A stretch of 60,000 nucleotides of DNA from Malacoraja senta (lineage: Eukaryota). A program made the position numbers and the translations under genes. Shown here in pieces: positions 2,794-54,593 of the stretch. Under the pieces are notes generated by a model. That model worked only from the letters and a program-made list of their open reading frames with translations. It did no database searches and had not been told where the DNA came from. Location: positions 932,001 through 992,000 of the forward strand of contig CM075992.1 of assembly GCA_038087875.1 (NCBI GenBank), in the 5' to 3' direction. Positions within the stretch are counted from its first letter, which is position 1; every line of letters starts with the position of its first letter.

Positions 2794-3703
2794 CTGCGGC
2801 ACAAAACAGGACACAAACCAGAGGCTGAGTGTAACATATGGGTGCGGTCTTTACCAATACAGCGGTGACACAGGCTGGGAGAGGGTGGCGAAGGTGGCAT
2901 TTAGCACGATTTCTTCAGCAGGTGGAGGGAAGGGTCGCGGCCTGTAGAGGCAGCCGCCGAGCCGGCCTCTGCTTGACCCGCGGAGGTCCAGAGAACCGCA
3001 GTGGACAGCGGAGCCAAAGAATGAGGGCCGGTGAGAGAGTGAACCGGGGTCTTGCCTTCCATCCACACCCTCAAGGCCAGCTGCGGCAGGCAGGCAGCCC
3101 CGGGGCACAAAGGCTGAAGGTGGATGGGGCGAGGAAACATAGAAACATAGAAAAATAGGTGCAAGAGTAGGCCATTCAGCCCTTCGAGCCAGCACCGCCA
3201 TTCAATACGATCATGGCTGATCATCCAAAATCAGTATCATGTTCCTGCTTTCTCCCCATATCCCTTGATTCCGTTAGCCCTAAGAGCTAAATCTAACTCG
3301 CTCATGAAAACATCCAGTGCCTTCTATGGCAGAGAATTCCACAGATTCAGGAGCGAGACGACGGCACGTTGGACGATCCGGAGGGAGGCGATGGCTGGAG
3401 GCCCTGCAGCAGCCTGGGGCTCGCCTGGATCGGAAGACCGCTCCAGGAGGCCAAGCGCGCGGACCGGACTGGACTTTGTAAATAGCACCAAAACCTACTG
3501 ACACTTAAGTGCGGTCTCAATGGACTGTTTCTATGCACTTTGTACTAATCGGGGCAATAGTTTACTGAACTCTTGAGTCACACAGCATGGAAACGGGCCC
3601 TTCGGCCCAACTTGCCCACACCAACCAACATGTCCCAGCTGCACTAGTCCCACCTGCCTGCGTTTGTCCCATATCCCTGTAAACCTGCCCTATACATGTA
3701 CCT

Positions 3704-3875
3704 AGAGAAACTCAGCGGGTATGGCAGCATCTATGGAGCGGAGGAAATAGGCAACGTTTCGGCCCGAAACGTTGCCTATTTCCTTCGCTCCATAGATGCT
3801 GCCGTACCCACTGAGTTTCTCCAGCAATTTTGTCTACCTTCGATTTTCCAGCATCTGCAGTTCCTTCTTGAACAG
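3704..3875. mobile_element. Foldback (palindromic) Penelope-derived short element with 13-bp TSD
   Basis: Arms are near-perfect reverse complements around gcaacgtttcggcccgaaacgttgc. TSD tatacatgtacct at 3691-3703 and 3876-3888. Confidence 0.85.
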
Positions 3876-4123
3876 TATACATGTACCTGCCTCCTCTGGC
3901 AGCTTGTTCCATACACCCACCCCACTTTGTGTAAAATAAGTTACCCCTCAGGATTAGTGTGGATAGGTGTGACGGTCATCTCGGACAGGATGGGCTGAAG
4001 GGCCTCTATCTAAGCTGTATAATGCTATGACTATGAGTGTTGGAAGATGGGTCTTCTGCCAGAGATGCTGCCTGTCCCGCTGAGCTACGCCAGCTAACTT
4101 TGCTATGACTATGCCTATGTTAC

Positions 4124-5131: not shown

Positions 5132-7319
5132 CTGCCTGACCCACTGAGTTACTCCAGCATTTTGGGTCTTTTTTTTTTGTAAACCAGCATCTACAGTTCC
5201 TTGCTTCTACAATTAACAATAGCTAGAGAGGAAGCTACACTGTCAGAAAGAGTACAAAGCCCTATATAACTGAAACAGACCTCCCTACCTTGGTTGGACA
5301 TAACATGCTGGAGTAACTCAGCGGGACAGGCAGCATCTCTGGAGAGAAGGAATGGGTGACATTTCGGATCAAGACCCTTCTCCAGTATTTGGTTTAAACC
5401 AGCATCTGCAGTTCCTTCCTCGTATTCAATTACCCCATCCACAAACAGTGACATTCTGATACCTTTCCCGGTTCCTTACTGAATACATGTACTCGTGTTT
5501 GTTGAATCATCCATTAGATCCGAGAGTTCTGTACCCATTCGCCCTTTAGACGCAGACAACCAACCCTCCCTACTCCCCATACAGCGGGGGTGGCGTTCCT
5601 GAGGAACGGTCTGTACTACAGTTTTCCACAAAGCAAAGTTTAGCCATCTCAGCACGGGTCAACAAACAGGAGTTGTAAACAATAGGTCCATTTCCCCCTC
5701 CTCGTGTCATCTTCATAAACTTACTTTGTGAAGGAAAGCAGAGATAGATAGGTTCTTGATTAAGGTTACAGGGAGAAGGCAGGAGAATGGGATGAGTGGG
5801 ACAAATAGATCAGACATGATTGAATGGAGCAGCAGACTCGATGGGCCGAATGGCCTAATCCTGCTCCTTTGTCTTATGATACTTTCCTCCCCATCTTTAC
5901 TTTAGTTTAGAAATACAGCATGGAAACAGGCCCTTCAGCCCACGTTGACCACCAATCACCCGTTCTGTGTTATCCCACTTTTCACATCCAGTCCCCGCAC
6001 ACCAGGGGGCAATTTACAGAGAATTATTAACCTAGAAACCTGCACGTCTTTAGGATGTGGGATGAACCCATGCAGTCACAGGGAGAACGTGAAAACTCCA
6101 CACAGACAGCACCCGAGTTTAGGATCGAAATCTGGTCTCTGGCGCCGTGAAGTGGCAACTACCAGCTTCGCCTCTACATTGGGTCATCAGCAAACTCATC
6201 CCAGTGATAACATAAGCTGCAAACAGCTGAGGCCCAGTGCCGATCCCTGTACAAAGCATCCAGCAAAGGCCCGTGTTTATTAATCTGTTTCCTGCTAGCT
6301 GCCACTTCCTCTTTAATGTTGCTTCTGAACTACAGCTTCCACTTTCAGCACTGAACGTTGATGTGTGACACGGCGTTCCCTGCATCACACAGAGTGAATG
6401 TTCTCATTCCCAGCCCGCACCCAGAGCCAGACACACTCCAAGCCCACCCTCCCACATCCACACTGGGTGCTGCTGCTCCCATGGTCGAGACCCCTGCATG
6501 CTCTGCTCACACCCACACGTGGTACCACCCATGTCACACCACAGTGGGCACAGCCTCCACAGCCCACTCCAGTCCCACAACAGACCCCCCTCCCACCCCC
6601 ATCCCTGGCACCTACTCACTCCAACACCCACACCGGGCACCCAGTCATCCAGACAGTCTGAAGAAGGGTCTCAACCGGAAACGTCACCCATTCCTCCAGC
6701 TTTCTGTGGCTATCTTCGGTTTAAAGCAGCATCTGCAGTTCCTTCTTCCACACCCAGTCATTCCCCATCATCCCGGGCACCCACTCACCCAGCACTCTCA
6801 GGCATCACCCCACCTCAGTCAATAACTTACCTCACCCCCTCAGGCACCCGGTCAATCACCACCCACCCACCTTGGGCACCCTGTTACTCTCTCACCCTCT
6901 GGCACTCACTCACACCCTCTTCCCCCACCTTGTAGTTCCCACTCACCATCTGTGAGCATACCTTCACCCTGGTCGCTAACTTACCCCCCCCCCCCTATCC
7001 TCTGGCACCCACATACACCCTCACCACCCCCACCCTGGAGCACCCTCTCACCCTGGGCACCTAGTGCCCACCCACCCACACTGGACACCTGGAGCCCACC
7101 CAGGGGCACCCACCCACACTGGACCCCTAGCCCAAGGGCAGCCAGTCACCCCTCATCACAGACCCTGGTCACTGACTCACCTCACACCCTCGGGCACCCT
7201 GTTACTCCCCACACTGCCACCCTCGGGCACCCAGTCAACACATTCAAAGGCACCCGGTGCCTACCAACCCCTCCTGGATACCGAATCACACTCCCCTCTC
7301 CTACACTGGACACCCTGTG

Positions 7320-8270
7320 CGCACCCAGTACCCCCTCACCCCACCCAAGGGGCACCCTGTCACACCCCACCCACCCAAGGGGCACCCAGTACCCCCTCAC
7401 CCCACCCAAGGGGCACCCAGTACCACCACCCCATCCACCCAAGGGGCACCCAGTACCCCCTCACCCCACCCACCCAAGGGGCACCCAGTACCCCCTCACC
7501 CCACCCACCCAAAGGGGCACCCAGTACCCCCTCACCCCACCCACCCAAAGGGGCACCCAGTACCCTCTCACCCCACCCAAGGGGGCACCTAGTCACCCCC
7601 TCCCCCACCCCATCCACCCAAGGGGCACCCAGTACCCCCAACCCCATCCACCCAAGGGGCACCCAGTCCCCTCACCCCACCCAAGGGGCACCCAGTACCC
7701 CCTCACCCCACCCAAGGGGCACCCAGTACCCCCTCACCCCACCCAAGGGGCCCCCAGTACCCCCTCACCCCACCCAAGGGGCACCCAGTACCCCCTCACC
7801 CCACCCCAAGGGGCACCCAGTACCACCACCCCATCCACCCAAGGGGCACCCTGTCACACCCCCTCACCCCACCCAAGGGGCACCCAGTACCACCACCCCA
7901 TCCACCCAAGGGGCACCCTGTCAACCCCCTCACCCCACCCAAGGGGCCCCCAGTCACCCCCTCACCCCACCCCATCCACCCAGTACCCCCTCACCCCACC
8001 CAAGGGGCACCCAGTACCCCCTATCCCCACCCAAGGGGCACCCAGTACCCCCTCACCCCACCCAAGGGGCACCCTGTCAACCCCCTCACCCCACCCACCC
8101 AAAGGGGCACCCAGTACCCTCTCACCCCACCCCATCCACCCAGTACCCCCCTCACCCCACCCAAGGGGGCACCCAGTCACACCCTCCCCCACCCCACCCA
8201 CCCAAGGGGCACCCAGTCACCCTCTCACCCCACCCCATCCACCCAGTACCCCCTCACCCCACCCAAGGGT
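7320..8270. repeat. 31-bp GC-skewed minisatellite in SAMD1-like intron 1
   Basis: Unit ccaaggggcacccagtaccccctcaccccac with variants, roughly 30 copies. A degenerate C/A-rich extension runs back to about 6400. Confidence 0.95.
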
Positions 8271-8276
8271 GCCCAC

Positions 8277-8444
8277 CTTGCGCTCGGGGCCGCTGTCAGT
8301 GAGTGTGAGCCGCCGCTTCCCCTGGGCCTCGGCCTCGGCCTCCGGGCTGTTTCTGTTGCCGCCGCCGCCGCCGCGGGCCCGGGCCACCTGCTGCTCCTTG
8401 TGCCGGGCCCGGGTCAGCACCACACTGGGCGGCGGTGGCGGCCG

Positions 8445-8479
<35 letters not shown>

Positions 8480-8777
8480 GCGTGGCCGGGCTGCTGCTGC
8501 CCGAGGGCCCAGGCTCGGGCTCGGGCTCGGCTCCGGGCCCAGCTCCAGGCCCAAGCCCCGGGCTCGCGTTGCGGTACGAGTGCGAGCCCTTGTAGCGGAC
8601 CCGCAGCAGGGCCCGGGAGCGCAGCAGCCGCTCGAGTTGGCGCCGGGTGCGGCCGGGAGACACACCGTGCCGCCGCTGCACCATGGCGCAGATCCGCTCC
8701 TGGTCGGGCCGGGCCTTGCGGGCCCGCAGCCACTCGATGGCCTCGGAGATCCAGCGCCGGCACTCGGCCTCCGACAT
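8277..8777 (-). CDS. SAMD1: SAMD1-like exon 1 encoding the CpG-binding winged-helix domain
   Basis: MSEAECRRWISEAIEWLRARKARPDQERICAMVQRRHG...LLRVRYKGSHSYRN matches the SAMD1/KAT6 WH signature (LRxRKARPDxERIC...YKGSxSYRN). ATG at 8775-8777, donor AAG|GTGGGC, 501 nt. Lies in a CpG island next to a PRKAC gene, as in the known SAMD1-PRKACA synteny. Confidence 0.85.
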
Positions 8778-8960
8778 ACCCGGGCCCCAGGCTTCCCTTC
8801 ACCGGCCTAGGATCATCTCTCCTTCCCTCCCCTACCCCCAGGCCCCGGCCTCCCGCTCCCCGGCCTCCCGCTCCCCTCTCCCCGCTCCCCGCCTGTGCTG
8901 GGCGGGGCTCCAGGAGACAAACCCCGGCAGCTCCCAGTGGGCTGGGCCTGGCCTCTTGTG
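8778..8960 (-). promoter_or_regulatory. GC/CpG-rich 5' region and probable promoter of the SAMD1-like gene
   Basis: GC boxes (gggcgggg, ccccgcc) and ccggcctcccgctc repeats directly upstream of the ATG. Confidence 0.5.
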
Positions 8961-9083: not shown

Positions 9084-9283
9084 NNNNNNNNNNNNNNNNN
9101 NNNNNNNNNNNNNNNNNNNNNNNNNNNNNNNNNNNNNNNNNNNNNNNNNNNNNNNNNNNNNNNNNNNNNNNNNNNNNNNNNNNNNNNNNNNNNNNNNNNN
9201 NNNNNNNNNNNNNNNNNNNNNNNNNNNNNNNNNNNNNNNNNNNNNNNNNNNNNNNNNNNNNNNNNNNNNNNNNNNNNNNNNNN
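9084..9283. other. Assembly gap (200 N)
   Basis: Run of N. Confidence 1.
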
Positions 9284-12227: not shown

Positions 12228-12836
12228 CTGGGAAGTTTGGTACAGAGATTCAGCTGAGAGGAGAGAACTAACTTGCCAATTATGATTGTGTATATATATA
12301 TTGGAATATCACAAGCTCACTGAATAACATAAAAGGAAGTCACTACCATGTTAAATCCTCACAGGCTCAATCACTGAACGGAAATAGTCCATGTGGCCCA
12401 TTGTGCATACTAACATGAGGTACATTCACCTCACAAAACCTGCACCATTCCCCCTCACAACTATTGATCCAGTTCAACAAACAATCTGTTGGAGGAACAG
12501 TGGGCCGAGCTGCGTACTGTGGAGGGAAACAGCCAGTTGACACTTTGGGTTGGGGCGCTTCATCTAGGTTGGTCATTTGGCAGAGCCAGGGCACCCATAG
12601 ATGAAGAATTCCCAGAATATAGATCAGCTGGTAATATGGGCAGAGAAACGGCAGATGGAGTTTAATCCAGACTAGTGTGAGGTGCGTGGGAAGGAACTGA
12701 AGGAAGGTTTATACCAAAGATGGACACAAAATGCTGGAGTCACTCAGCGGGTCAGGCAGCATATCTCTGGAAAAAACCCTTCAGACTCTACCTCATGTGA
12801 GGTGCTGCATTTTGGGAGATCAAATGCAAGAGGAAA

Positions 12837-14185
12837 TTATATGGGATAGCAGCACATTTGGAAAGTGGTGAATTCATTGGACAAAGTCAGCATGGATTTA
12901 CGAAAGGTAAATCGTGTCTGACGAATCTTATAGAATTTTTCGAGGATGTAACTAGTAGAGTGGATAGGGGAGAACCAGTGGATGTGTTGTATCTGGACTT
13001 TCAGAAGGCTTTCGACAAGGTACCACATAAGAGATTAGTATACAAACTTAAAGCACACGGTATTGGGGGTTCAGTATTGATGTGGATAGAGAACTGGCTG
13101 GCAAACAGGAAGCAAAGAGTAGGAGTAAACGGGTCCTTTTCACAATGGCAGGCAGTGAATAGTGGGGTACCGCAAGGCTCAGTGCTGGGACCCCAGCTAT
13201 TTACAATTTATATTAATGAACTGGATGAGGGAATTGAAGGCAACATCTCCAAGTTTGCAGATGACACTAAGCTGGGGGGCAGTGTTAGCTGTGAGGTGGA
13301 TGCTAGGAGACTGCAAGGTGACGTGGATAGGTTGGGTGAGTGGGCAAATGTTTGGCAGATGCAGTATAATGTGGATAAATGTGAGGTTATCCACTTTGGT
13401 GGCAAAAACAGGAAAGCAGACTATTATCTAAATGGTGGCCGATTAGGAAATGGGGAGATGCAGCGAGACCTGGGTGTCATGGTACACCAGTCATTGAAAG
13501 TAGGCATGCAGGTGCAGCAGGCAGTGAAGAAAGCAAATGGTATGTTAGCTTTCATAGCAAAAGGATTTGAGTATAGGAGCAGGGAGGTTCTGCTGCAGTT
13601 GTACAGGGTCTTGGTGAGACCACACCTGGAGTATTGCGTACAGTTTTGGTCTCCAAATCTGAGGAAGGACATTATAGCCATAGAGGGAGTGCAGAGAAGG
13701 TTCACCAGACTGATTCCTGGGATGTCAGGACTTTCATATGAAGAAAGACTGGATAGACTTGGCTTATACTCGCTAGAATTTAGGAGATTGAGAGGGGATC
13801 TTATAGAAACGTACAAAATTCTTATGGGGTTGGACAGGCTAGATGCAGGAAGATTGTTCCCGATGTTGGGGAAGTCCAGGACAAGGGGTCACAGCATTAA
13901 GGATAAGGGGGAAATCCTTTAAGACCGAGATGAGGAAAAACTTTTTCACACAGAGAGTGGTGAATCTCTGGAACTCTCTGCCACAGAGGGTAGTTGAGGC
14001 CAGTTCATTGGCTATATTTAAGAGGGAGTTAGATGTGGCCCTTGTGGCTAAGGGGATCAGGGGGTATGGAGAGAAGGCAGGTACGGGATACTGAGTTGGA
14101 TGATCAGCCATGATCATATTGAATGGCGGTGCAGGCTCGAAGGGCCGAATGGCGTACTCCTGCACCTATTTTCTATGTATCTATG
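12837..14185 (+). mobile_element. CR1-like LINE (HER1-like), 5'-truncated, RT domain
   Basis: ORF 12858-13922 with [27 protein letters not shown] and FADD. One frameshift near 13895. (tcta/tgta) tail. Confidence 0.95.
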
Positions 14186-15032
14186 AATATACTCAGACGA
14201 AAGATCAACAAATTTGAAGACAAATTTGAAGACAGGGAATCAAAAGATATGGGATGCGTGCAGATAAATGGCACTGAGGTAAAAGATCAACCATGATCTT
14301 ACTGCAGGAATCCCACCTCTGTCTCTTACGTTCAACGAGTATGACCCTTCAATGCCTGTGAAAGATAACCAGTACTGGGTAATGAAGAGTGAGCAATGAA
14401 TGCACGCATTGCCAGTGATCGACAACACTCAAAAATAAATGAACAAACTTTGATCGTGAAAGTGTAAAATGTAATAATAATAACTTCCTTCCCCTTGCCC
14501 ATCAGTAAGCAGAGCGAGCCTGGCTGTTATTCAATTCTGTTTCCATCTACACAAATGCTATTTGACCTCTTGTTTTTATTTCAGATTTCCACCATCTGCA
14601 GCTTTTTGACTTTCAAGAATGGGAATCACAGTGGGAATGGCAAGGTGTCAATAATTTTGGGAATAAGGATGGGGAAAATTCAGTCAAGAAAAGTGGCCTT
14701 GGTGAGGCAGCACCTCTTAGATGTAGTTCCAAATAATGTCTCTTGGAGCTGGCATGGACTCAATGGACTGAAACGCCTTCTTCGATGTTGTGAGGAAACA
14801 TTGGGAATGGATTTTGAGGACCTGACCAAGCCTGATAATCTACTGCAATTCTGAAGGACTGTTATTAAACTGAGTTCTGCCATTTCAGTGGTTTGGCATG
14901 GGGACTTCTGACAAAGTGCCACCCATTCTAAATTCCAACAATACTGGAAACAAAACCTGCCAGCCATTTCTCTTTGTGGGCTCTTAGTTTGCACAAAACA
15001 GTCACCATATGTGCTTACATATAATTACTACT

Positions 15033-16840: not shown

Positions 16841-17661
16841 AATCAGATCTTACTGATGTTTTCACCTCTGTCTGAAATAGCCTAACAAGCCAAGTGGTGC
16901 TTAGTGATGTTTAATAAACGGTAGCCATGAATAGATTTAAAAAAAGGAAGATGTCAACACTTTCCAACTGCTATGTCAATAATCATTAAATGATAATTAG
17001 CTAAATCTCAGCACATGGGGATGATCTCCTAAATCATCTGAAATTTGAAGATTTTCATGACGTTCAGATCATTTATGAGTGTATATACAAGTCATATAAT
17101 ATCATTCACCCCCCCCCCATATCTAATAAAAAGACTCAAATATATGATATGAAAAAACAAGCAATTTTCAAAAAAGACAAAGTGCAGGAGGAACTCAGCG
17201 GATCAGACAGCTCCTCAGAACATGGATAGGTGAGGTGTTTAAGAAGGAACTGCAGATGCTGGAAAATCGAAGGTACACAAAAATGCTGGAGAAACTCAGC
17301 GGGTGCAGCAGCATCTATGGAGCGAAGGAAATAGGCAATGATAGGTGAGGTTTTTGGTCGGGATCCTTCTCCAGACTGACTCATTTCAGATTTGTTTTTA
17401 TGTGATTTTCCAGATTTATAATCAGTAAAATTGCAATTGCAAGGTAAGTCGGCACCTTGTGACATGGTTACTGCACATGCAACTCTGCAGCATACTATTT
17501 ACTTTTGATACAACATGTTTGGAACTAATGGTGACACAAATATGAAGAAGGCTCTCGACCCACAACGCAATCTATTCATATTCTCCAGAAGTGCTGCATT
17601 TTGTGTCTTTTAACCATTAGTGGTGCATCAACAGTAGTGACTGTCCAAGAAATAGCTATCA

Positions 17662-17886
<225 letters not shown>

Positions 17887-18708
17887 TTAAGATTTGCTCA
17901 GACATAAAATCTTGGAACAATTACACTTGTCCCCCTTCGCCCCTTATTTAAAGACTTTTTAACCTCATTTAACAAAAGGAAAAGCTTGTGCTGCCTGGCC
18001 ACAGAATTCTATTGGCTTTTTTGCCTTCGAGAGTTTTATTGTGTGTGTCATTAAGTCCTGAAATGGGACAATGAAATTCATACTTGTAGCAGTAGCACAA
18101 CAAGCTGTAAACACAGTACTCAACAGAGACTATAATAGTGCAAACATTCAAGTGCCTAGAGCAACTATAGCAGTGCAAAGTCTGCAGTGGTTCAGTGCTG
18201 AGGAAGGGTTGTGGTTAGGGTTGTACAGGGTGGTTCAAAAACATGTTGGTTGATGAGAAGAAGCTGATCTTAAACCTGGAGTTGATGGTACTCGGGCCCC
18301 TGATGGTAGAAGAGAGGATGGCCAGGGTAGTGAGGGGCTTTGACATTAGCTGCCTCCTTGAGGGAGCGCTTCCTGTAGATCCCTTCGACAGCAATTCACT
18401 TATTTTCTATGTTTTCATTCCTTCTCCGGCCCGTCTTTACTACATGCGTTGCTGAGGTTTATAAACAGGGATACAACTGTCCATCTCACATAAACCTAAC
18501 CACAGGATTTCAGTGCTTTTTTCTTTGTCTAGTAGTTCTGTAGTTCCTTGTGTCTGCTGTCTTCTTTCGTAGGTGTGTCAGAGCGGATGGGGTGTGAAGT
18601 GGGCCTTCATTATCTTATATATGTGTGCTCGTGAGTATGATGGTGGAGGGGTGGGAACTGCGTCTACAAAGATACATGAGGTGGTAGGGAGTCATACTCT
18701 GACTGGTC

Positions 18709-18885
18709 AAGAAAGAACTGCAGATGCTGGAGAATCGAAGGTAGACAAAATTGTTGGAGGAATTCAGCGGGTGCGGCAGCATCTATGGAGCGAAGGAAAT
18801 AGGCAACGTTTCGGGCCGAAACGTTGCCTATTTCCTTCGCTCCATAGATGCTGCCGCACCTGCTGAGTTTCTCCAGGAACTTTGT
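18709..18885. mobile_element. Foldback Penelope-derived short element with 15-bp TSD
   Basis: Palindrome centred on gcaacgtttcgggccgaaacgttgc. TSD atactctgactggtc at 18694-18708 and 18886-18900. Same element as 3704-3875, in the opposite orientation. Confidence 0.88.
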
Positions 18886-19014
18886 ATACTCTGACTGGTC
18901 TGGTCTCGCCACTGCACCCATGTTGAATAGAATATTGCAGATTCTCTATTCTCAAGGCGTTCTCTGTACTTGAACGGTGAGCAGGTCACAGACAGGGCAT
19001 TTCACCATACATAC

Positions 19015-19141
19015 CTGGATGTAGCCACTTTGGTCAATCAGTATGTTTTCAGGTTTCAGGTCTCTGTATAGAAGATCTAGCGAGTGAAGGTATTCGAAGG
19101 CAAGGACAATCTGAGCTGCATAAAATCGAGAGTGAGGTTCA
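19015..19141 (-). CDS. PRKACA: PKA catalytic subunit exon 6 ([42 protein letters not shown])
   Basis: Catalytic loop YRDLKPEN; 127 nt; canonical splice sites. Confidence 0.98.
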
Positions 19142-19744
19142 CTGGAAATAAGGGAGAGGCAATTAGATTCAGTCTTCACAAGGTAGCAAACACTTAGATC
19201 AACATGGCGAGATTCCGAGTGCGTTAAGCAATTCAGTGCACACTGGTATGTGAGCTTTGTAAAAATGAAGAAAGGTTCTGATGGAAATGAGTGCGTAGAA
19301 GGGCAGAAAGAAACAGAAACGGCTGCGTTAAAGATGATCCTTTGTCCAATAGAATTAGATTGGCGATGAGCTACAAAATAATGTACTGAATGGATCATGA
19401 CTGTCAGGCTTTCCTGCTCATTTCATGAAGGACATGTTTTTATACCCATCAGTATATGAGCTTGCTACCTGCCAACACAACTCCTCACTCGGTGAACTGT
19501 CACTGACACTACTGTCTTGCTGCAGATGAAGGGACTGCCTGTATTTCAGATTACAAGAAAACTCCTATTTTTATCATATCCATTTCCCATTCATTACTCA
19601 TTAACTTCCAGCTTGCTGCACAGCTTGGGGCTTATTGGAGTAACATCCTTAGAATATTTCAAAATTTGGTATATTTGGAAAGGAACATGCTGTACAAGGT
19701 GTGCAGAGTCAAGCAGAGATAGACAAGGTTTGGGGCTAGTTGGG

Positions 19745-20051: not shown

Positions 20052-20812
20052 TGATGGAGTTTAATGCATGTAAGTGTGAGCTGTTGCATTGTGGAAAGTC
20101 AAATCATGGCAGGATCTGTACAGTGAATGACAGTGCCTTGGGGAGTGTTACGGAGCAGAGGGATCTAGGAGTACAGGTACATAGTTCCTTGAAAGTGGTG
20201 TCACAGGTATATAGGGTGGTCAGGAAAGGTTTTGGTGCATTGACCATCATAAAGGGTATTGCATATAGAAATTGGGATGTTATGTTACAGTTGTGCAAGA
20301 CATTGGTGAAGCCGCCTTTGGAATATTGTGTTCAGTTTTGGTCACCCTGCTATAGGAAGGATGTTGTTAAGCTCGAAAGAGTGCAGTGAAGATTTACGAT
20401 GATGTTACCAGGACTTGAGGGCCTGAGCTGTCGGGAGAGGTTTGGAAGGCTAGGACTTTATTCCATGGAGCGCAGGATGACGAGAGGTGTTCTTATGGAG
20501 GTACATAAGGTCATGAGAGGAATAGATCGGATAAATGCACAGTCTTTTACCCAGACTAGGGGAATCGAGAACCAGGGAGGGGAAAGATGTTATAGGAAAC
20601 TGAAGGGCAATGTTTTCCACACAGAGGTTGTGGGTATATGGAATGAGCTGCTAGTTGAGGCAGATTCTATAACATTAAAATACTTTAAATAGGAAAGGTT
20701 TAGATAAATATGGACCAAACGCAGACTGGTGGGATTAGTGTAGGTGGGGCATTTTTGTCGGCATGGGCAAGTTGGGCAGAAGGGCCTGGTTCATGCTGTA
20801 CAACTCTATGAC
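20052..20812 (+). mobile_element. Older CR1-like LINE fragment
   Basis: Degenerate RT tail (MEFNACKCE..., RDLGVQVH, PLEYCVQFWSP) with stops. Confidence 0.85.
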
Positions 20813-26660: not shown

Positions 26661-28279
26661 CTGCAACATAAGAAAAGTCGGTCAGTGCTTGCTTCCAAGT
26701 CTATTGCTCCTTGTTTCTTTTCAGCATCCTTCTCCTGCACTGTGCATGCTCTCCCTTCAGCACAGTGTGCTGGTCAGGGCGTTTGTGACTCAGAAACAAT
26801 GCTGAAAATGGTAGAAAAACAGACACACATTACTGAAACAGTTGACACATGCAGCTGGGAAATCACAACAATAGACAATAGGTGCAGGAGTAGGCCATTC
26901 GGCCCTTCGAGCCATCCAATGATCAACTTTGTGAAATATTGAACACTTTCAGTTTGTGTACACCTCAAAAAGAAGCGGTGCCCTTCTTTCAAAGAAAATG
27001 TGAAAATATAGCTGACGGGATTCAAAGTTCTTATTTTACTCCCAACGCTGAATACCAAAAGTGGTGTTGAGAAAGGGAAAAATGATGGAAAGCATAAAAA
27101 GGAAATGATAACAGATTGTCTTATCAGTAACATTTATGGCAGGAACTGTAAAGTCGTATGAATTAGCACGATCAATGGGGAGCTACAAATATGGGTCCAC
27201 GTTTACATGCAGTGAGATATTTAAAGATGACTTTACTGGCTTTACCTTGCACTAAACGTTATTCCCTTATCATGTATCTATACACTGTAAATGGCTCGAT
27301 TGTAATCAGGTGTTGTCTTTCCGCTGGCTGGTTAGCACGCGACAAAAGATTTTCACTGTACCTCGGTACACGTGACAATAAACTAAACTGACTGACTGAG
27401 GAAGGGATGAATTAAACTCAGGACAGAGAGCAAGAGTTGAGATAGAGGCATATTCTCTGAGGATGAGAAATTGCTCAGTGCAGAGGCTGAGGAAGGAAAG
27501 CGGAGATCTCAACACGAACAAATAAAACATTTAATGATGTTATAATGATATAAGCAAACTCCGATTCATCTTTACTAATTTTAACTTGTATACTTCTCTG
27601 CCTTATTTTCCTCTACATCCTGTTCATTAATCGAGTGTTTGTTCTGCTGATACACCAGCAGATGGCTGCTCTGCATCAATACACTGAGTAGTTGCTGCTT
27701 GTTGTTTCATTTCCTCTTCAGTATTTTTTTAGATATTATTTTAAGAAATTACAGACAAATGGGGTTCTGTTTGCTAAAATGAGCATCAAAAGGCAGAAAA
27801 TGTCCTATCTTACGTGCCTCCAGAACTATTCACTTCATTGGTACAAAGAGGCATCTCAGAGTCATACAGCACAACAGTCTGAGCCCCTCAGCCCACTATG
27901 TTCACAATGAATTTTTGTCCATCTACACCTATCCCACTGCCCGCATTAGGATTATATTCTCTATTGCTCCGAAATTATCCAGGATTTCCCTATATTAGCA
28001 AAGCACTACCTCATTAGGTATTAAATATTCACTAGAATGTAGACACAAGGAACTGCAGAAGCCCCGGTTTACAAAATAAAACAAAGTGTTGGAGTAACTC
28101 TGAGGGTCAGGCAGCATCTCTAGAGGACATAGATAGGTGACACTCCGGGTCTGGATCCTTCTTCAATGTGAACAAGGGTCCCAATCCAAAATATCACCTA
28201 TCCATGACCTCCAGCGATGCTGCCTAACCTGCAGTTACTCCAACACTTTATGCTTTATTACCATATACACTTTATAGAT

Positions 28280-29783
28280 ACATAGATACATAGAAAATAG
28301 GTGCAGGAGTAGGCCATTCGGCCCTTCGAGCCTGCACCGCCATTCAATATGATCATGGCTGATCATCCAACTCAGTATCCCGTACCTGCCTTCTCTCCAT
28401 ACCCCCTGATCCCTTTAGCCACAAGGGCCACATCTAACTCCCTCTTAAATATAGCCAATGAACTGGCCTCAACTACCCTCTGTGGCAGAGAGTTCCAGAG
28501 ATTCACCACTCTCTGTGTGAAAAAGTTTTTTCTCATCTCGGTCTTAAAGGATTTCCCCCTTATCCTTAAGCTGTGACCCCTTGTCCTGGACTTCCCCAAC
28601 ATCGGGAACAATCTTCCTGCATCTAGCCTGTCCAACCCCATAAGAATTTTGTACGTTTCTATAAGATCCCCTCTCAATCTCCTAAATTCTAGCGAGTATA
28701 AGCCAAGTCTATCCAGTCTTTCTTCATATGAAAGTCCTGACATCCCAGGAATCAGTCTGGTGAACCTTCTTTGCACTCCCTCTATGGCTATAATGTCCTT
28801 CCTCAGATTTGGAGACCAAAACTGTACACAATACTCCAGGTGTGGTCTCACCAAGACCCTGTACAACTGCAGTAGAACCTCCCTGCTCCTATACTCAAAT
28901 CCTCTTGCTATGAAGGCCAACATACCATTCGCTTTCTTCACTGCCTGCTGCACCTGCATGCCTACTTTCAATGACTGGTGTACCATGACACCCAGGTCTC
29001 GCTGCATCTCCCCATTTCCTAATCGGCCACCATTTAGATAATAGTCTGCCTTCCCGTTTTTGCCACCAAAGTGGATAACCTCACATTTATCCACATTATA
29101 CTGCATCTGCCAAACATTTGCCCACTCACCCAGCCTATCCAAGTCACCTTGCAGTCTCCTAGCATCCTCCTCACAGCTAACACTGCCCCCAGCTTAGTGT
29201 CATCCGCAAACTTGGAGATGTTGCTTTGAATTCCCTCGTCCAGATCATTAATATAAATTGTAAATAGCTGGGGTCCCAGCACTGAGCCTTGCGGTACCCC
29301 ACTAGTCACTGCCTGCCATTGTGAAAAGGACCCGTTTACTCCTATTCTTTGCTTCCTGTTTGCCAGCCAGTTCTCTATCCACATCAATACTAAACCCCTA
29401 ATACCGTGTGATTTAAGTTTGTATCCTAATCTCTTATGTGGTACCTTGTCGAAAGCCTTCTGAAAGTCCAGATACAACACATCCACTGGTTCTCCCCTAT
29501 CCACTCTACTAGTTACATCCTCGAACAAATTCTATAAGATTCGTCAGACACGATTTACCTTTCGTAAATCCATGCTGACTTTGTCCAATGATTTCACCAC
29601 TTTCCAAATGTGCTGCTATCCCATCTTTAATAACTGACTCTAGCAGTTTCCCCACTACCGATGTTAGACTAACTGGTCTGTAATTCCCCGTTTTCTCTCT
29701 CCCTCCCTTCTTAAAAAGTGGGGTTACGTTTGCTACCCTCCAATCCTCAGGAACTACTCCAGAATCTAAAGAGTTTTGAAAAT
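28280..29783 (-). mobile_element. CR1-like LINE, 5'-truncated, near-identical to 12837-14185
   Basis: ORFs 28372-29142 and 29034-29528 carry the RT motifs, separated by frameshifts. Same tail. Confidence 0.95.
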
Positions 29784-32000: not shown

Positions 32001-35000
32001 GGTCCTCTGGAGGAGAAGGCGTGGACCTGCTGGATGCCAGGGCAGGCGAGCCCCCCGGAGATGTAGAGCTTGTCCAAGATCTGCCGGGTATGGTCTGTTC
32101 ACTGCATCTTAGCGCAACATCACTCATTGGTAGAGGTGCCTTTACTTGCACAGACTGTACTTATAACCAGAGGCCACATTTCCAACGCCACTCAGCACCT
32201 TCACACATCAGTAGGCCATGAAATTGGGACAGTCATCAAGTTCAAACAATGGCCCATTGTGCACACATCACTGAGCGGCACTTGGACCAGCAATCGCCCT
32301 AAAAGTCAAAAGTTTATACATTCTAGCATTACAGTGTCCCGGTATCTATACCTCCTTCACAGTCAAGCATTCCTTCTCAACGGGACATTGCCGCATTCTG
32401 GGTCTTACATCAACACACATCATACTATCCTAGGTAAACCTGTCTAACCTAGACACTACTGCCCATGTGCTCAGATCTTATTCTCATACAAATATCACAA
32501 GGAAGCAACAGCTGAGGATGCTTGTGGCATGTCGGGCCAGAAGGAGAGAGCAAGGGAGTATTGCGAGAACCTCTATGGATCCAGCCGTGCTTGTGATCAG
32601 GCATTTACTCTGTTTCATATGTAATCAATAGGATTTTTTCCCTAACTTGAAAACTCTTGGCTCTTGCATTTATTCTCAATCATGCAGAACAATCCTGGGT
32701 CATTACCTTCAGTATCATCTCATCACTCTCAAATATTTAATTAGTAGTTTCAAACATACCCAGAAATCAATGTTTACAAAAAATAAGAGTAGGCTGTGGT
32801 ACATGGGAAGTGTTCTCTCTGAGTTTGGAGATTAACTTGGTGATGGGATCTAATATTGTCGGTCAATATTATTGTGGGAAAACGAAATGTAAACAGTGTT
32901 CCTTCTCTTTTTAGGTTCTCCTTGAAGTAGTGGAAGAGGGAAGACTGAGTTGCAGCTTGCTGTCTCAGAGGAACCATCAGGCTGAGGCGAAGAACAGGAG
33001 GACATGATGGTGGCAGTGCAGAAGATATTGCACTCTGGGTAACCCCAGTCCCACTGTTGTGTGCCTTGTACCATGGAGGTTAAGCGGGCAGAGCAAGAAC
33101 TGAGCCCTCCTTGTCCTCTCCCTGGGAGAGAGCGTGGGAAGCAGGGACACAGTCATGCAGAAGGTGCAAAATATCACCTGGAAATCCAAACGCAAAACCA
33201 TTGGGAATTCTGAATAGACAAATAACGAATAATCTTACTATATAACCAAATAGTTCTACTCAATAACCAAAAGTCTGTAGCCTCCATTTGCTCTGGTATT
33301 TTGTTTCATTCACATGTTTAAACTATGGCGTTTTGTTCTTAATGTCTCAATGTTTTATGTTTTATTCTTACTGTATATCGTGTTGTTACTTGCGAGAGGA
33401 GCATCAAAGCAAATTCCTTGTATGTATACATACTTGGCCAGTAAATTTATTCATTTATATATTTTGCACTATTAAAATTGCGCCCCATTTTGAGTGAAGA
33501 TATCTAACTGACTGTCGATTCTACTTGTGTTTTTTGTCTTTCAGTTGCTAACCCTAAGGTAACCAAGGTAAGACAACCAGAAGCCCTGGAGTGTTTGTGC
33601 ATCTGTAATTTCAAAGCACAAAATGAACGTGTCATGTGCTACAATAGTATAAAGTTCTTGTGGGGTGTTTGTCCATTCCAGTCATACTTTTGACCCAAGT
33701 ATTCAGTTTATATTGAGCCAGCCTAGTTGTGCAAGGCCAACCTTGGGACTCATCTCATGAAGGCACGTGGCGATATCCAGTTACTGGGGGAGCAATCAAA
33801 GTTGCCAATGGTAACTGGCTAGCATTGGGCTCCCTTACAGTGTGAGCAATTCATGTTAGATACAATAGGGTACTCATACAAACGATTTAAATGTTTTGGA
33901 AATGCGAGAAGAATCTTGTTAATATCAACCAACAGATACCAAACTTCTGAAAGCCAGGCCATGTCTCAAGTCCTTCTGGAGACACCAGGAACTGCAGATA
34001 CAAAAAAATATACAAAGTGCTGGAGTAACTCAGCATGTCATGCAGCATCTCTGGAATACACAAAAAGGTGATGTTTTAGATTGGAACCCTTCTTCAGACT
34101 AATTGTGTTGGTGGGGGAGGGGGGCAAGAGAAAGCTGGAGGGGAGGTGGGTCAGCGCAGTCTGTCCCTTTCTATCTATATCCCTTCCTCCGTCTTCACAA
34201 TTCGTACCTCTTCTATCCTTATCTCCCTATCTCACACGTTTTGTCATTTCATCTCTGGCCTTTGTCCAACCGTTGGACAATCAAACACAACTCTCACATG
34301 TATTCACCTATCACTTGCCAGCCTTTGTACTGCTCCCATCTCTCTTCCAGCTTTCTCCCCCCTCACCTCCCCCTCCCCTCCCCTTCTCCACCACAATCAG
34401 TCGGACGATGGGTCCTGACCTATATATACTCGAGATGCTGCCTGACCCACTGAGTTACTCCAACACTTGGTGTCTTTTTTCTCCAGTCCTTCTGTTTGAG
34501 AAGTGTCTGCTGTTGTATAGTCACTTGTTTGAAGAATCACAGAATGATAGAAGTAGATATAAATATTTGGAGCACATCACTGCACATATGCAATGTCATG
34601 TGTCTTTTTTAAAGCCTGAGTGTGCCTGACAAGCTATGAAGTTGGGTCTACAATTGAGTAGACTGCTATGCCCACTGGACTGCAGTGTTAGAATTAGGCA
34701 GCAGTTTCAAATGAATCCATGAGTGTATGTCATGGTCAAGTGGAACAAAGGCATTTGCAGTTGCTGCCTAAGTATTCCACTTAATCAGAAGGAGATTATT
34801 AAATTCCTTTATAAACTCACTGAGTAGCTCTGGTACCATAGGTTGTACTGCTCCTAAATTAGCTTTGGTACACTTGACTTCAAGTGTTCTTACATGGGGT
34901 ATTTAAGTAAAGTTTGTAAATGAGAAGAGCTACTTGTCACAAGGGTATTCAGCCTTAGAATAATTCACAATGCAACAGCTGTTTGATGATGATGAATGAA

Positions 35001-37400: not shown

Positions 37401-38631
37401 ATCAAGCAGTCAGCATTTACTATTTGACACTCCCTTAATCAATAATGCAACATAATTCCTGCAGGTCAGCTAGTCCAGATACCCTGTAATTTTCAGTGAC
37501 CCTGTACCCAGTGCTCCAGCCAAAAGCACATTAAGGCTTACATGAGCAGCAGAAACCTTTGCTGCGGCTACTTCATAAGCCTCTCTCACCACTGTACTGT
37601 ATAATTAATAAAGCATTTAGAAAATCTATCTGGGCTGAGAAAGAATATCAGGCCACTTGGCTACAGTACCAGGAGGTTGAGCAATGTAACATTAACAATA
37701 CTGCAAAATATTTATGCTAGCCCATCACACTTTCTTCTTAAAAAAAAGTCCGAAGAGGGGTCTCGACCCGAAACGTCACCTATTCCTTTTCTCCAGAGAT
37801 GCTGCCTGACCTGCTGTTACTCCAGCACTTTGTGTCTATCTTTAGTGTAAACCAGCATCTGCAGTTCCTTCTTACACATTTGTTTGATTACCTTTAAAAT
37901 CGACCATTCCATGTATCTAGGTTCATATTCGCCATCAATCTGGATTGCTAATAGCTACAGAACCTGGCCACGGGGTACTTTTCTGAAACGACTGTTTCCA
38001 ATGCTCTAACTACAATATTATAACCATGGACACACTTCAAACAATAACTAGAGAATACCATTTATTGCCACATGGGTCCCTCTTACTTCCCACTCACTAT
38101 TTCTTGCTGACATTTTTCAATAGTTACTTTAGTCACCTTGTTGACTTTTTTCCTAATTCAACTACTCTAGTTTATCTTAAAATATTTCTGCTCAAGGTAT
38201 TTTCCAACCTGCTTATTAACTCACCCATACCCTATATCCTGCTGTGTTTCTCCAACAAAGTCTACTATTCTTATCCTCTGTAATAGGCTTAACTGTGTTA
38301 TTTTCTATTTCCATCTCATTTCCAAGTTTTTCTTAATACTCTTAGCTCTTTGTTGTTAATGGGTTGACAGCATATTAAGTCAGAAATAACTTGTATCTGA
38401 AAATAACTTTTACATTTACATTTTCTGATGTCATGCCCAGCTTATTAGAGTCACAGAGTCGTACAGCACGGATATGGGCCCTTAGGCCCAACTTGTCTAT
38501 GCCGATCAAAATGCCCCATCTTATCTAGTCCCATTTGCCCGCGTTTGGCCCATATTCCTCTAAACCTTTACAGGAAGTACCCAAGCACTTTGCAACCAAT
38601 GAAATACTGTAGTTTGGAAGTATGGTTCTAG

Positions 38632-39305
38632 CGAGGCAGTGAAGAAAGTGAATGGTATGTTGGCCTTCATAGCAAGAGGATTTGAGTATAGGAGCAGGGA
38701 GGTTCTACTGCAGTTGTACAGGGTCTTGGTGAGACCACACCTGGAGTATTGCGTACAGTTTTGGTCTCCAAATCTGAGGAAGGACATTATAGCCATAGAG
38801 GGAGTGCAGAGAAGGTTCACCAGACTGATTCCTGGGATGTCAGGACTTTCATATGAAGAAAGACTGGATAGACTTGGCTTATACTCGCTAGAATTTAGGA
38901 GATTGAGAGGGGATCTTATAGAAACGTACAAAATTCTTATGGGGTTGGACAGGGTGGATGCAGGAAGATTGTTCCCGATGTTGGGGAAGTCCAGGACAAG
39001 GGGTCACAGCTTAAGGATAAGGGGGAAATCCTTTAAGACCGAGATGAGGAAAAACTTTTTCACACAGAGAGTGGTGAATCTCTGGAACTCTCTGCCACAG
39101 AGGGTAGTTGAGGCCAGTTCATTGGCTATATTTAAGAGGGAGTTAGATGTGGCCCTTGTGGCTAAAGGGATCAGGGGGTATGGAGAGAAGGCAGGTACGG
39201 GATACTGAGTTGGATGATCAGCCATGATCATATTGAATGGCGGTGCAGGCTCGAAGGGCCGAATGGCCTACTCCTGCACCTATTTTCTATTCTATGTATC
39301 TATGG
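38632..39305 (+). mobile_element. CR1-like LINE 3' fragment, same young subfamily
   Basis: ORF 38639-39208 nearly identical to ORF 28372-29142. Confidence 0.95.
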
Positions 39306-40949
39306 TAACTTTTGTAAGAAAAACAAAAAGTTGTATCGAAAAAACAAACTAATTTGCCAATTCATCCACTTCCATTGTGTGGATTAAAAAGATTTACAAG
39401 GATGTGGGGATGTGGCCAGGACCTCAGGGTCTGAGCTCGGGAGATGTTGGGCAGGTGGTTACTACAACAACATTTAAAAGACATTTGGACAGGTACATGA
39501 ATAAGAAAGGTTTAGAGGGATATGGGCCAAACGTGGGCAAATGGGAAGAGATAAGATGGAGCACTTTGGTCGGCATAGACAAGTTGGGCCGAAGGGCCTA
39601 TATCCCTGACTGTGACTCTAATAAACTGGGCATGACATGATATCAGAAATTTGAAATGTATGATGAAATCATTTACACCTGCCTGAGATACAGTACACGT
39701 GAAGCCTTGTCCCATTTCAAGGACCACGTACACTCAAGCGCAGATACAATAGACTGTTTTTTTGCTCAAGATTCCTGCATCTGCAAAGTGCTGGAGGAAC
39801 TCAGCTGGTCAAGCAACACCTGTGGAGTGAAAAGGACAGTCAGAGTATCAGGGCAGAACTTTCTTCAGTCTGTCCTTTTCCCTCCACAGATGATGCCTGG
39901 TCTGCTGAACACCTCCAGAAAATTGTTGTTTATATTACATTGGACTATTTTGTTGCATCATTTTCATGTCTCAGTCTAGTAAGTGTACGTAAAGCTTGGA
40001 ATCCTGATAAAGTGACTGGAGTCAAGTCCTGCAAGTGAGGGAAGCTAACATCAATGCTTCTAACAAATGCTGGTGGATTAGCAAAGATGCATTGGGCATC
40101 TCCATTTGATCTTCTGAACAATGGATTCATTCAAATGGATCAACCATATTGAACTGCCACTGGCCATCAGGTCAACAATGTCTCATGGTGCTATAGGTTT
40201 GCAGAATTGAGACCCAGTGAGGCCAAATAGCAAATCAGATACTATGTACATTTAAAGAGTATTTGTAGGTGGTTTCCATGTGCCTGATATCTTTGACCTT
40301 GCTGGTAATTACTGCTGATTGAGGAGTGGTTGGTGAAGTCTGGATGAATTGCTGGATGGCAAATATTGTAGCCATCACTGGCAGATTGACTTGACTGAAT
40401 GCTTATGAAATCATATTATGGCATGTTAGGAGTTATGGGTGGGGTTTCATCAAGCAGTATTAGTTGTTGTTGCGTTTCTGAGTGCTGTCATACCTGTATT
40501 AATCCAGGCACGGGCAGTGTGTTCCATCCTATATCTGACTTGAGTCATAGAGAGTGACACAGTGTGGAAACAGGCCCTTTGGCCCAACTTGCCCATACCG
40601 ACCAACATGTCCCAGCTACACTCGTCCCACCTGCCCGTGTTTGTTCCATATCCCTCCAACCATGGACCTGTCTAACTGTTTTGAAGATCTCAGGTGATGA
40701 TTCACTTGCAACATGCTACTGAGCTTCTCTTTTGCTTTTGTAACTAGGTATTTGTGGCTTGTTCTGTTACGTTTCTGATCAGAGTTTTTCCCCAGCCCCA
40801 GACAGTTGATGCTGGGCTGCAGTATTGCTTTGAATGTCAAGGATAGATAGGTTCTTGTTGGAGATGGTCATTAACTGGTGCTTACCAGTCCATACTTGAT
40901 CATTGTCCAGGCTTAACTGCACTCGGGTACAGTAATTTCATTTTAAAAA

Positions 40950-41170
40950 TAGACACAAAGTGCTGGAGTAACTCAGCGGGTCAGGCAGCATCTCTGGAGA
41001 ACATGGATAAGTGACATTTCAGGTCAGGTCTCTTCGTCAGACAACTTTCAGTCCAAAGAAGAGTCCCGACCCAAAATGTCATCGATACATATTCCCCAGG
41101 AATGCTGCCTGACCCGCTGAGTTACTCCAGCATTTTGTCATTGTTTTGAAAACCACCATCTGCAGTTCAT
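40950..41170. repeat. Inverted pair of Penelope-derived pseudo-LTR modules
   Basis: tgctggagtaactcagcgggtcaggcagcat ... atgctgcctgacccgctgagttactccagca. Similar arrangements at about 28040-28255, 29950-30190 and 33985-34480. Confidence 0.8.
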
Positions 41171-52446: not shown

Positions 52447-54593
52447 AAGAACTGTAACTTTTAATAAATCTTCACCCTGGTACACACCTGCACTTCGTAA
52501 GCTGAAACAGATTGGTCGCCGACTTGAACGACTCATAAAGAAATCTCCTCTCACAGTCCACCATGAAGCTTACAAACTCCACCTCACTGCCTACAAAGAT
52601 GCCCTCATTGCTGCTAAATCTGCATACCTCTCCTCCATACTCACTGACCCCTGCCTAAACCACAGAACCCTCTTCTCCACAGTCTGCAACCTCCTCAAGC
52701 CTCGAGCCATCACTCTCCCTACCTCCACTCCGGATCTCTGCAACTCATTCCTCCACTTTTTTGCTGATAAAATTAGCACCATCTATCAATCCCTATCCCC
52801 TGTACCCGACTCCCCAGCATCTACTCCACCACCTACCAAGGCCCCTCCTTTCAACATCTCCGCTGATCTCCATACCCCTCCCCCTCACTGTTTCCTCTCC
52901 CAGTTTGACCCGGTCACCCCTACTGAAATCTCCAAACTCATCAGCTCTTCCAAACCCACTACCTGCTCCCTTGACCTCTCCCCACTCCCCTGCTGAAGTC
53001 CTGCCTCCCTGCTCTCTGCCCCTACCTCACTAATCTTTTCAACTCCTCATTGTCCCAAGGAATTGTCCCCTCTGCTTTCAAAACTGCTGCTGTCACGCCA
53101 ATCTTAAAGAAACCTGGTCTTGATCCCTCCTCTCTCATTAACTACCGCCCCATCTCAAACCTCCCCTTTCTTTCAAAAACCCTGGAGCGCATCGTCGCGT
53201 CACAACTTCATTCCCACCTCCTCGCGTATAACCTATTCGAACCCCTCCAATCTGGCTTTCGCCCCCTCCATAGCACAGAAACTGCTCTCCTCAAAGTCCT
53301 CAATGACCTCCTTACCTCTGCTGACTCTGGCTCCCTCAATATCCTCATCCTCCTCGACCTGAGTGCAGCCTTCGATACCGTCAACCACAACATCCTGCTC
53401 AACAGACTTAGGGACCTTGGCATTGAAGGTTCTGCACTCAGCTGGTTCCGTTCTTACCTTTCCAACCGATCCCACTTCATCTCTCTCCATAACCACACCT
53501 TTGCCACAGCCACTGTCACTCAAGGCGTTCCCCAAGGCTCCGTTCTTGGTCCCCTCCTCTTCATCATCTACATCCTCCCCCTTGGTCATATACTCCGTCA
53601 CTTCAACCTGGACTTCCACTGCTATGCTGATGACACCCAGATCTATCTCAGCACCAAGTCCCCCCACCACCCCCCTCTCTCCCATATCAACTCCTGCCTA
53701 TCAGCCATCAAATCTTGGATGCAACTCAACTTCCTTAAATTAAACAGTAGCAAAACAGAATTTCTCCTCATTGGCTCCAAATCAACACTCACTAAAATTA
53801 ACAACCCCACTCTCACTATCGACGGCACCACTGTCTCCCCATCTCCTCAGGCACGCAACCTTGGCGTGATCCTTGAATCAACCCTCTCCCTTGAGCCTCA
53901 CATCCGCCATGTTGTCAAAACATCATTTTTTCACCTCCGCAACATTGCAAAAATCAGATCCTCTCTCTCACACCCCCCGCTGCTGAAAGACTCATCCATG
54001 CCTTCATCTCCTCCCGACTGGACTACTGTAACTCTCTTCTTTTCGGAATCAATTCCAGCAGCATCAAACGACTCCAACTGGTCCAAAATGCAGCCGCTCG
54101 ACTCATTACCCACACCAAATCCTGGCACCACATCACCCCAGTTCTCAAAGAACTTCACTGGCTTCCCATTTCCCACCGGATCACCTACAAAATCCTGGTC
54201 CTCACCTACAAAGCCCTCAACAACCTGGCCCCCCCTTATCTCATTGACCTCCTCTCCCCCTACCAACCCTCACGGTCCCTCAGATCCACATCAGCTGGTC
54301 TCCTCTCCACTCCGAAATCAAACCTCTGCACTTTTGGAGGCAGAGCCTTCTCCAGGGCAGCTCCCAGGCTCTGGAATTCCCTCCCACAACCGGTCCGAAA
54401 TTCTGAGTCCCTCACCATCTTCCAGTCCCGCCTCAAGACCCATCTCTTCACCTCTGCATACCCTTAGTCCCATGTCCCCCTCCCCTCTGTCTTACTGCTC
54501 TATTTTGTTTTGTTTATTCCTGACTCTCAATTGTAAAGCGACTTTGAGTCCTGAAAAGCGCTATATAAATAAAATCTATTATTATTATTATTA
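52447..54593 (+). mobile_element. L2-clade LINE, 5'-truncated, RT domain
   Basis: [49 protein letters not shown] and YADDTQ motifs. Frameshift near 53970. L2-type end aaagcgctatataaataaa with (tta)n tail. Splits a minus-strand SINE (about 52345-52446 and 54594-54780). Confidence 0.93.

Follow-up and report, generated by a model that had tools for sequence, protein, structure and literature searches.

The insert at positions 3704–3875 of the window (the whole 60,000-nucleotide stretch analysed here) is almost certainly a dead, severely 5′-truncated insertion of an endonuclease-bearing Penelope-like element (PLE), of which only the terminal repeat is left, as a direct copy, an adjacent inverted copy and a one-sided tail. 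The head-to-head join between the two copies was most likely made during integration. This layout, with its inverted 5′-truncated copy, palindromic junction, one-sided tail and variable target duplication, is the published PLE insertion pattern, and the interpretation given in the initial annotation is partly supported and largely anticipated in print. In particular, the mechanism is not new: self-priming at palindromic head-to-head junctions was already proposed in the excerpted text of PMC3846280.

Anatomy of the fold-back insert

The locus (copy 1) is made up of the following parts.

3691–3703, + strand: left target-site duplication, 13 bp, exact match to 3876–3888
3705–3762, − strand: short tail-less inverted arm, copying terminal-repeat positions equivalent to parent 603–660
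3756–3770, + strand: 15-nt quasi-palindromic junction (7-1-7) with centre base 3763, equal to parent 595–609
3764–3875, + strand: long arm, the PLE 3′ end, starting with the GAAAC half of the hammerhead motif and including the tail
3876–3888, + strand: right target-site duplication, 13 bp

The 172 bp insert and its 13 bp duplication are thus as initially annotated; a shared word of at least 13 bases occurs by chance in 3 of 2825 random flank pairs. The inverted arms, put at about 60 bp, measure 58 bp: 3705–3762 and 3764–3821 pair at 55 of 58 positions around the centre base, and at 57 of 61 when the pairing is extended 2 bases into the left target duplication. The short arm meets this duplication through 2 bases of microhomology (3702–3703). 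The right side continues for a further 54 bases (about 3822–3875) that have no pairing partner, which makes the arms unequal. The predicted RNA fold of 3691–3888 reaches −120.5 kcal/mol (z −19.3), a value equalled by none of 200 shuffles. Only the long arm carries a recognizable tail (score 45, compared with 8 for the short arm; the threshold of 30 is the 99th percentile of the background).

Both arms align with the parent element from its position 595 onward only, the long arm with 93% identity to parent 595–713. The CUGANGA core is gone and the inverted arm takes its place, as had been proposed; judged from its sequence, copy 1 cannot be a hammerhead with this half missing. The motif at the centre is present at 596–608, 3757–3769 and 18809–18821 of the window. 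The older repeat that hosts copy 1 lacks approximately 17–43 bases beside the right duplication (3876–3900) when compared with the host copies at 1150–1275 and 20600–20799, the larger figure (43) having been read by eye.

The parent element and its endonuclease

The sequence of both arms derives from an element that is represented by a linear copy near the start of the window.

251–724, + strand: linear 5′-truncated parent-type PLE copy (266–709) with 15 bp duplications at 251–265 and 710–724
264–467, + strand: last 67 codons and stop of an ORF with a C-terminal GIY-YIG endonuclease
582–615, + strand: minimal hammerhead motif (core 585–591, bulged A 592, stem II 593–596/601–604, core 605–612)

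The best protein match of the ORF fragment 264–467 has 82% identity (E 1.4e-26), with 480 matches at E ≤ 0.001, and five top matches carry the names Leucoraja, Rhinoraja and Hypanus, from which a skate or ray is the probable host. Pfam places no family on the 67-residue fragment itself. Among 15 relatives hand-picked from the 150 matches listed, 11 carry GIY-YIG at E ≤ 0.01, three of them above Pfam's cut-off. In the ESM Atlas, the fragment falls beside unnamed eukaryotic clusters at 0.94–0.95 and a cluster at 0.90 in which 15% of the members carry GIY-YIG, which we take as a lead only. The longer relatives P0083 and P0149 have an RT preceding the C-terminal GIY-YIG, whereas the copy in the window is truncated and has no RT; this arrangement in the relatives is the layout of an endonuclease-positive PLE. 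The Penelope origin claimed in the initial annotation is therefore upheld by a parent that ends a GIY-YIG ORF with PLE-type relatives. P0149, a distant relative (44% identity), also shows the cysteine linker that the excerpts of PMC8557442 ascribe to Neptune/Nematis, and its sequence tentatively points to this clade. No metagenome contig matched a 28-base word of the family. Finally, in the public batoid gene models P0001, P0005 and P0017 the PLE endonuclease end is fused to unrelated proteins, for example a neuromedin-U receptor, which is likely to reflect mis-annotation or exonisation.

The hammerhead motif and the palindromic centre

Read against the minimal-hammerhead descriptor in the excerpted text of PMC4209133, the parent motif has the core boxes and stem II, with a predicted cut after position 612 and a weak stem I. 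It resembles the minimal hammerheads of metazoan PLEs described there in its core boxes, the bulged base before stem II, the G–C first pair, the palindromic positions 15.2–16.2 and the lack of a helix III. It differs from them, as a putative motif, by a stem II of 4 bp and a stem I of only 2–3 bp in most copies, and the fold-backs lack the 5′ core. In a set of 10 copies, 97.5% of the cells are paired for stem II and 63.3% for stem I, with no compensatory change. Two of the three tested pairs of helix I hold in 9 of these 10 copies and the third in one, most window copies having 2–3 bp; the copy at 16218 forms a 6 bp stem I. A search of the whole window against Rfam at gathering scores returned nothing, and the only four matches in the region 540–680 are at chance level and to families other than hammerheads; the hammerhead fold is also missing from the RNAalifold prediction. 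Since there is no Rfam match, stem I is weak and no change is compensatory, we read parent 582–615, from its sequence, as a match to the minimal type I hammerhead motif and not as a proven ribozyme. In the RNA run X22 (see below) read ends do not pile up at the predicted cut site, a likeness to the Poseidon element, for which the excerpts of PMC11167929 likewise report a lack of RNA ends at this position.

The symmetry centre of the fold-back does lie in this motif, but it is not that of the ribozyme's own hairpin, as had been proposed. It falls on parent position 602, in the middle of the 7-1-7 quasi-palindrome 595–609, whereas stem II is centred on 597–600. Although it shares bases with loop II, the GAAAC core and the 3′ strand of stem II, the hairpin at this centre is distinct from stem II: the two pairings are mutually exclusive and of nearly the same predicted energy (−5.0 kcal/mol for the palindrome and −5.1 kcal/mol for stem II). 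The palindrome is paired in 78.3% of the cells of the 10 copies (97.5% for stem II). All seven of its pairs are present in three of the 25 segments that span the centre, namely the parent and the two fold-backs, and the other 22 have 0–5. It is therefore a trait of one young subfamily rather than a conserved ribozyme hairpin. A junction at 602 is found in two of the three segments with a perfect palindrome and in none of the other 22 (Fisher P 0.01, computed post hoc on segments that are not independent); within the window, no segment with an imperfect palindrome is joined at 602. The palindrome-forming bases 597 and 601 are each kept in approximately 42–48% of the reads of X22, and the subfamily is thus common in one or more related organisms. 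Another perfect 7-1-7 palindrome, at 34264–34278 within the 184-base loop of the old pair 33982–34495, is possibly a small template-switch scar.

Young and older copies in the window

Four fold-backs with loops of at most 40 bases were found in a scan of the window; copy 1 and a second young copy (copy 2) are the strongest. A young linear relative is also present.

18694–18900, − strand: second fold-back copy, a 177 bp insert (18709–18885) with a 15 bp duplication (18694–18708/18886–18900)
17225–17351, − strand: young linear related copy (17236–17338) with a 12 bp duplication, lying within an older copy

The short arm of copy 2 is 70 bp long and pairs at 64 of 70 positions around base 18815, which matches the centre of copy 1; the tail scores of its two arms are 37 and 10 (threshold 30), and 36 bases at one end are unpaired. 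In both copies the short arm joins the target duplication via 2–4 bases of microhomology. Target duplications in the four young copies measure 13, 15, 15 and 12 bp and are thus variable in length. The linear copy 17236–17338 begins no more than about 2 bases from the position where the ribozyme is predicted to cut. The older copy that surrounds it belongs to the same family, has the same orientation and is interrupted in its hammerhead region. The linear copy may have been retro-copied from cleaved RNA, or it may be an insertion that targeted its own family.

These features bear on whether the insert could be a DNA-transposon MITE, or a linear insert in which replication slippage later produced an inverted duplication. 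Copy 1 is indeed short and non-coding with a strong inverted repeat, as either would be. However, its inverted repeat reaches only one end of the insert, 54 bases at the other end being unpaired (36 in copy 2), the two duplications are unequal (13 and 15 bp), the short arms differ in length (58 and 70 bp) and the sequence is the 3′ end of an element bearing a GIY-YIG ORF. As for slippage, the duplication encloses both arms, which means that they arrived together. We thus consider this explanation, MITE or slippage, very improbable and largely refuted. The signs that would have spoken for a MITE in the initial annotation, fixed terminal inverted repeats and a constant short duplication, are absent, and its retro mechanism is retained on the unequal duplications and the one-sided arm. 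A non-LTR retrozyme was rejected as well: copy 1 is a single head-to-head unit without an intact core, whereas a retrozyme, as described in the excerpts consulted, consists of head-to-tail tandem units with intact hammerheads.

A profile search of the window returned 43 family segments, with 21 adjacent pairs within 600 bases: nine head-to-head, two tail-to-tail and ten in the same direction. Under a limit of 300 bases, picked after the data had been seen, the ratio of head-to-head to tail-to-tail is 9:1 (binomial P 0.011). The head-to-head neighbours 5297/5386 and 17236/17539 were dropped for their weak arm-to-arm scores (16 and 35). Five older head-to-head pairs join away from 602, three of them as follows.

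40940–41175, no strand assigned: older head-to-head pair whose junction (parent ∼583) immediately precedes the CUGANGA core, with an 8-base loop and a one-arm tail
28045–28263, no strand assigned: older head-to-head pair with its junction at parent ∼586 and a 7-base loop
39784–39933, no strand assigned: older head-to-head pair with a decayed hammerhead core in a 20–30-base loop

The arms of the pair 39784–39933 prolong stem I and leave the decayed core as the loop. In the remaining two pairs the loop measures 115 and 184 bases. Three of the older pairs are flanked by candidate duplications, 8, 9 and 10 bases long (matches of these lengths arise by chance in 140, 39 and 12 of 2825 random flank pairs, respectively), and no target duplication was found for the other two of the five. 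The tail is lopsided in six of the seven head-to-head pairs, but only three of the seven have one arm whose tail score is above the background threshold. The expectation that centres would coincide while short arms vary in length holds, within the window, for the two young copies, which share their centre and have arms of 58 and 70 bp, but the five older pairs depart from it by joining elsewhere. Across the family the junctions vary in position without being random, most of them being located within the hammerhead module or next to it.

Genomic context

Copy 2 lies approximately 130 bases past the splice donor of a protein-kinase exon (19015–19150, − strand; the family was assigned by Pfam, and we take it to be of the PKA type). 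Downstream of the SAMD1 winged-helix exon 8220–8798 (− strand), a donor-like site is present at 4123, and copy 1 lies approximately 250 bases beyond it; copy 1 is thus probably in a SAMD1 intron, and the frame near the donor-like site has no Pfam hit. Both hairpins could, judging from these positions, form in pre-mRNA. An array of approximately 31-base GC-rich units occupies 7290–8270, downstream of the SAMD1 exon, and an N gap lies near 9100–9280. Elsewhere in the window, young RT-bearing LINE-like pieces (12801–14191, 28275–29624 and 38603–39290) are 95–99% alike and in opposite orientations, and a separate RT frame of 557 codons is located at 52975–54648. The frame 58474–58947, which adjoins a PLE copy, has a weak match to DUF659 (E 0.0014, below the cut-off) and is probably a DNA-transposon remnant.

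The family in sequencing runs

We aligned four sequencing runs (the RNA run X22 and the contig runs X13, X1 and X2, for which the counts are incomplete) to the linear parent 255–730. The PLE family is very abundant in three organisms. In the RNA run, the depth rises about 25-fold at 575–590 and most 5′ loose ends fall at 579–583, showing that most family copies begin just before the hammerhead core. An end at 679 is frequent in X13 contigs, and an end at 713 in X22 and X2 (among the 24 of 1666 loose ends listed). Short tandems are suggested by joints that run back to 583, for example from 708 and from 679. The joints listed (15 of 186) include no strand switch at 602; because strong hairpins are under-sequenced, this is no evidence for or against a common fold-back. 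There is no excess of editing: A>G and T>C changes number 10 and 41 in X22 compared with 5 and 21 in X13, and C>T and G>A changes 44 and 22 compared with 27 and 13; the reads of X22 stem mostly from linear copies, which makes these counts uninformative for 3691–3888.

Formation of the junction

With confidence just short of even, we favour a route in which both target strands prime. The GIY-YIG endonuclease would nick both target strands 13–15 bases apart, and both 3′ ends would then prime reverse transcription on the element RNA, one from a distal start (parent ∼713) and the other from a second start 35–50 bases upstream, giving a tailed and a tail-less cDNA. Both cDNAs would stop in the hammerhead region and anneal via the self-complementary 15-mer 595–609; fill-in would produce the head-to-head hairpin, the CUGANGA half being dropped so that no ribozyme is left. 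The enzymatic steps of this route we infer throughout, beside an anatomy, a parent, a subfamily-specific palindrome and microhomologies that are directly observed. Activities of this kind are described, in the excerpts of PMC11167929, for the purified Poseidon PLE protein of Anolis carolinensis, which cleaves and extends both target strands in vitro and starts at two sites, the tail being the stretch between them; this lizard element probably belongs to a clade other than that of the PLE studied here. The parent with its ORF, the duplications of 12–15 bp in the four young copies and the excess of head-to-head over tail-to-tail neighbours (nine to two) also speak for this account.

A second start site is also suggested by the element itself, because short arms, unpaired copies and X13 contigs end in a similar zone. 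The short arms end at parent 663, 676, 669 and 686 (with junctions at 602, 602, ∼586 and ∼583, respectively) and six unpaired copies end at 669–689 under permissive alignment, a clustering that is rough since these positions come from local alignments of old copies, several of them over-extended. Several observations weigh against two-ended priming. Only two young copies are available, and in both the centre base follows the long arm, as snap-back of a single cDNA predicts, whereas two-ended joining would yield either base. Moreover, the short arm of copy 1 stops about 16 bases short of the common 679 end, the tail passes the threshold on one arm in only the three pairs counted above, and a strand switch at 602 is missing from the 15 of 186 joints listed.

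Snap-back self-priming, the mechanism of the initial annotation, is to our mind a serious possibility that falls well short of even weight. One cDNA from the distal start would stall at 595–598, fold on the palindrome, copy 58–70 bases and jump to the other target end via 2–4 bases of microhomology. A minus-strand cDNA end at 595 is indeed the best paired among ends at 583–611 (P 0.88–0.93 for the last three bases), and any stop at 595–598 yields an identical product. Snap-back also accords with the centre base following the tailed arm in both copies, with the private change that the arms of copy 1 have in common, with the confinement of 602 junctions to the perfect palindrome (2/3 compared with 0/22, post hoc) and with the self-priming proposed for rotifer PLEs in the excerpts of PMC3846280. 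On the other hand, the RNA would have to be stripped from the cDNA end, and snap-back alone leaves unexplained the common 25-base end zone of short arms and tail-less linear copies and, with it, the suggested second start. The palindrome dependence and the microhomologies do not separate the two routes, as two-ended priming predicts them equally. Taken together, two-ended priming fits slightly better than cDNA snap-back.

Both routes form each hairpin anew at its target. Copies 1 and 2 could instead be 5′-truncated retro-copies of one or a few ready-made fold-back elements, that is, of a non-autonomous family mobilized by the PLE. The two copies have their centre in common, together with subfamily changes at 642, 666 and 673 that are absent in both linear young copies, and 99 of 106 bases match between their long arms. 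Yet a non-CpG change at 644 is present in both arms of copy 1 and absent in copy 2 and both linear copies, so that a ready-made source would need a second fold-back event or arm-to-arm conversion, and no change is common to the two short arms alone. Together these two observations fit separate formation, and the single site 644 argues for separate formation of the two copies or for conversion. In addition, a hairpin of −120 kcal/mol would be a poor template for reverse transcription, and other junctions recur in older subfamilies. We therefore regard a ready-made source as quite improbable.

L1-style twin priming on a single, non-repeated template, in the form in which that mechanism is generally understood, was rejected for the reason that sequence of the direct arm is present again in the inverted arm.

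Comparison with known systems

In the excerpted text of PMC8557442, an inverted 5′-truncated copy adjoining the pseudo-LTR/5′ end and a one-sided tail of 30–40 bp are typical of PLEs, and the mechanism behind these inverted-junction features is called undefined. Copy 1 resembles these units in its head-to-head inverted copy, one-sided extension and 5′ truncation, and the parent family resembles the PLEs themselves in the hammerhead motif of the terminal repeat and the C-terminal GIY-YIG. In contrast, the fold-backs have no ORF inside, their unpaired extensions of 36–54 bases are partly longer than 30–40 and their junction lies inside the hammerhead core, half of which is removed.

A precedent for the junction comes from the rotifer Adineta vaga, in which palindromes at the head-to-head junctions of Penelope elements were read as self-priming in 2013 (excerpts of PMC3846280). 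The inverted repeat of Pen2a overlaps the direct one by 15 bp, as in the fold-backs here, and is 37 bp shorter. Target duplications are variable and 8–10 bp long in the A. vaga PLEs compared with 13–15 bp here, and in the excerpts of that paper the self-priming is proposed to use an antisense template and the junction is not linked to the ribozyme. Those of PMC11167929 offer no model of an inverted junction, and those of PMC4209133 describe pairs of hammerhead motifs on opposite strands 100–700 bp apart. In Drosophila, siRNAs match the inverted repeats of rearranged Penelope copies (excerpts of PMC3681739); there, long Penelope inverted repeats are the source of dsRNA, a role that is only potential for the Penelope inverted repeats of the fold-backs here. 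No description of this batoid subfamily, or of a junction inside the hammerhead core, was found in the literature covered, to which most subscription papers and the Repbase and Dfam entries do not belong; the excerpts of PMC5753468 and PMC8969392 contain nothing of relevance to the fold-backs.

Implications

As an object, copy 1 is ordinary PLE debris; its value is that of a test case for the formation of inverted PLE junctions. The models available so far, in the excerpts of the respective papers, are self-priming (PMC3846280) and extension of both strands (PMC11167929), and a fixed palindromic joint with one asymmetric centre base provides a cheap genomic test between them. For annotation, caution is needed with such stubs, which can be mistaken for MITEs or microRNA hairpins. 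The broadest reading, which we rate as rather unlikely, is that two substitutions (parent 597 and 601) in stem-loop II of one subfamily made a 15-nt palindrome that pins the joint at a single nucleotide. As a consequence, the subfamily would recurrently insert as near-perfect, ribozyme-dead hairpins, thousands per genome and many of them intronic, in which the centre base would record the copied strand, and edited dsRNA would arise from these hairpins in a lineage-specific way. If this reading of the palindrome is true, the centre base would be a natural read-out between snap-back and two-ended priming for Penelope elements.
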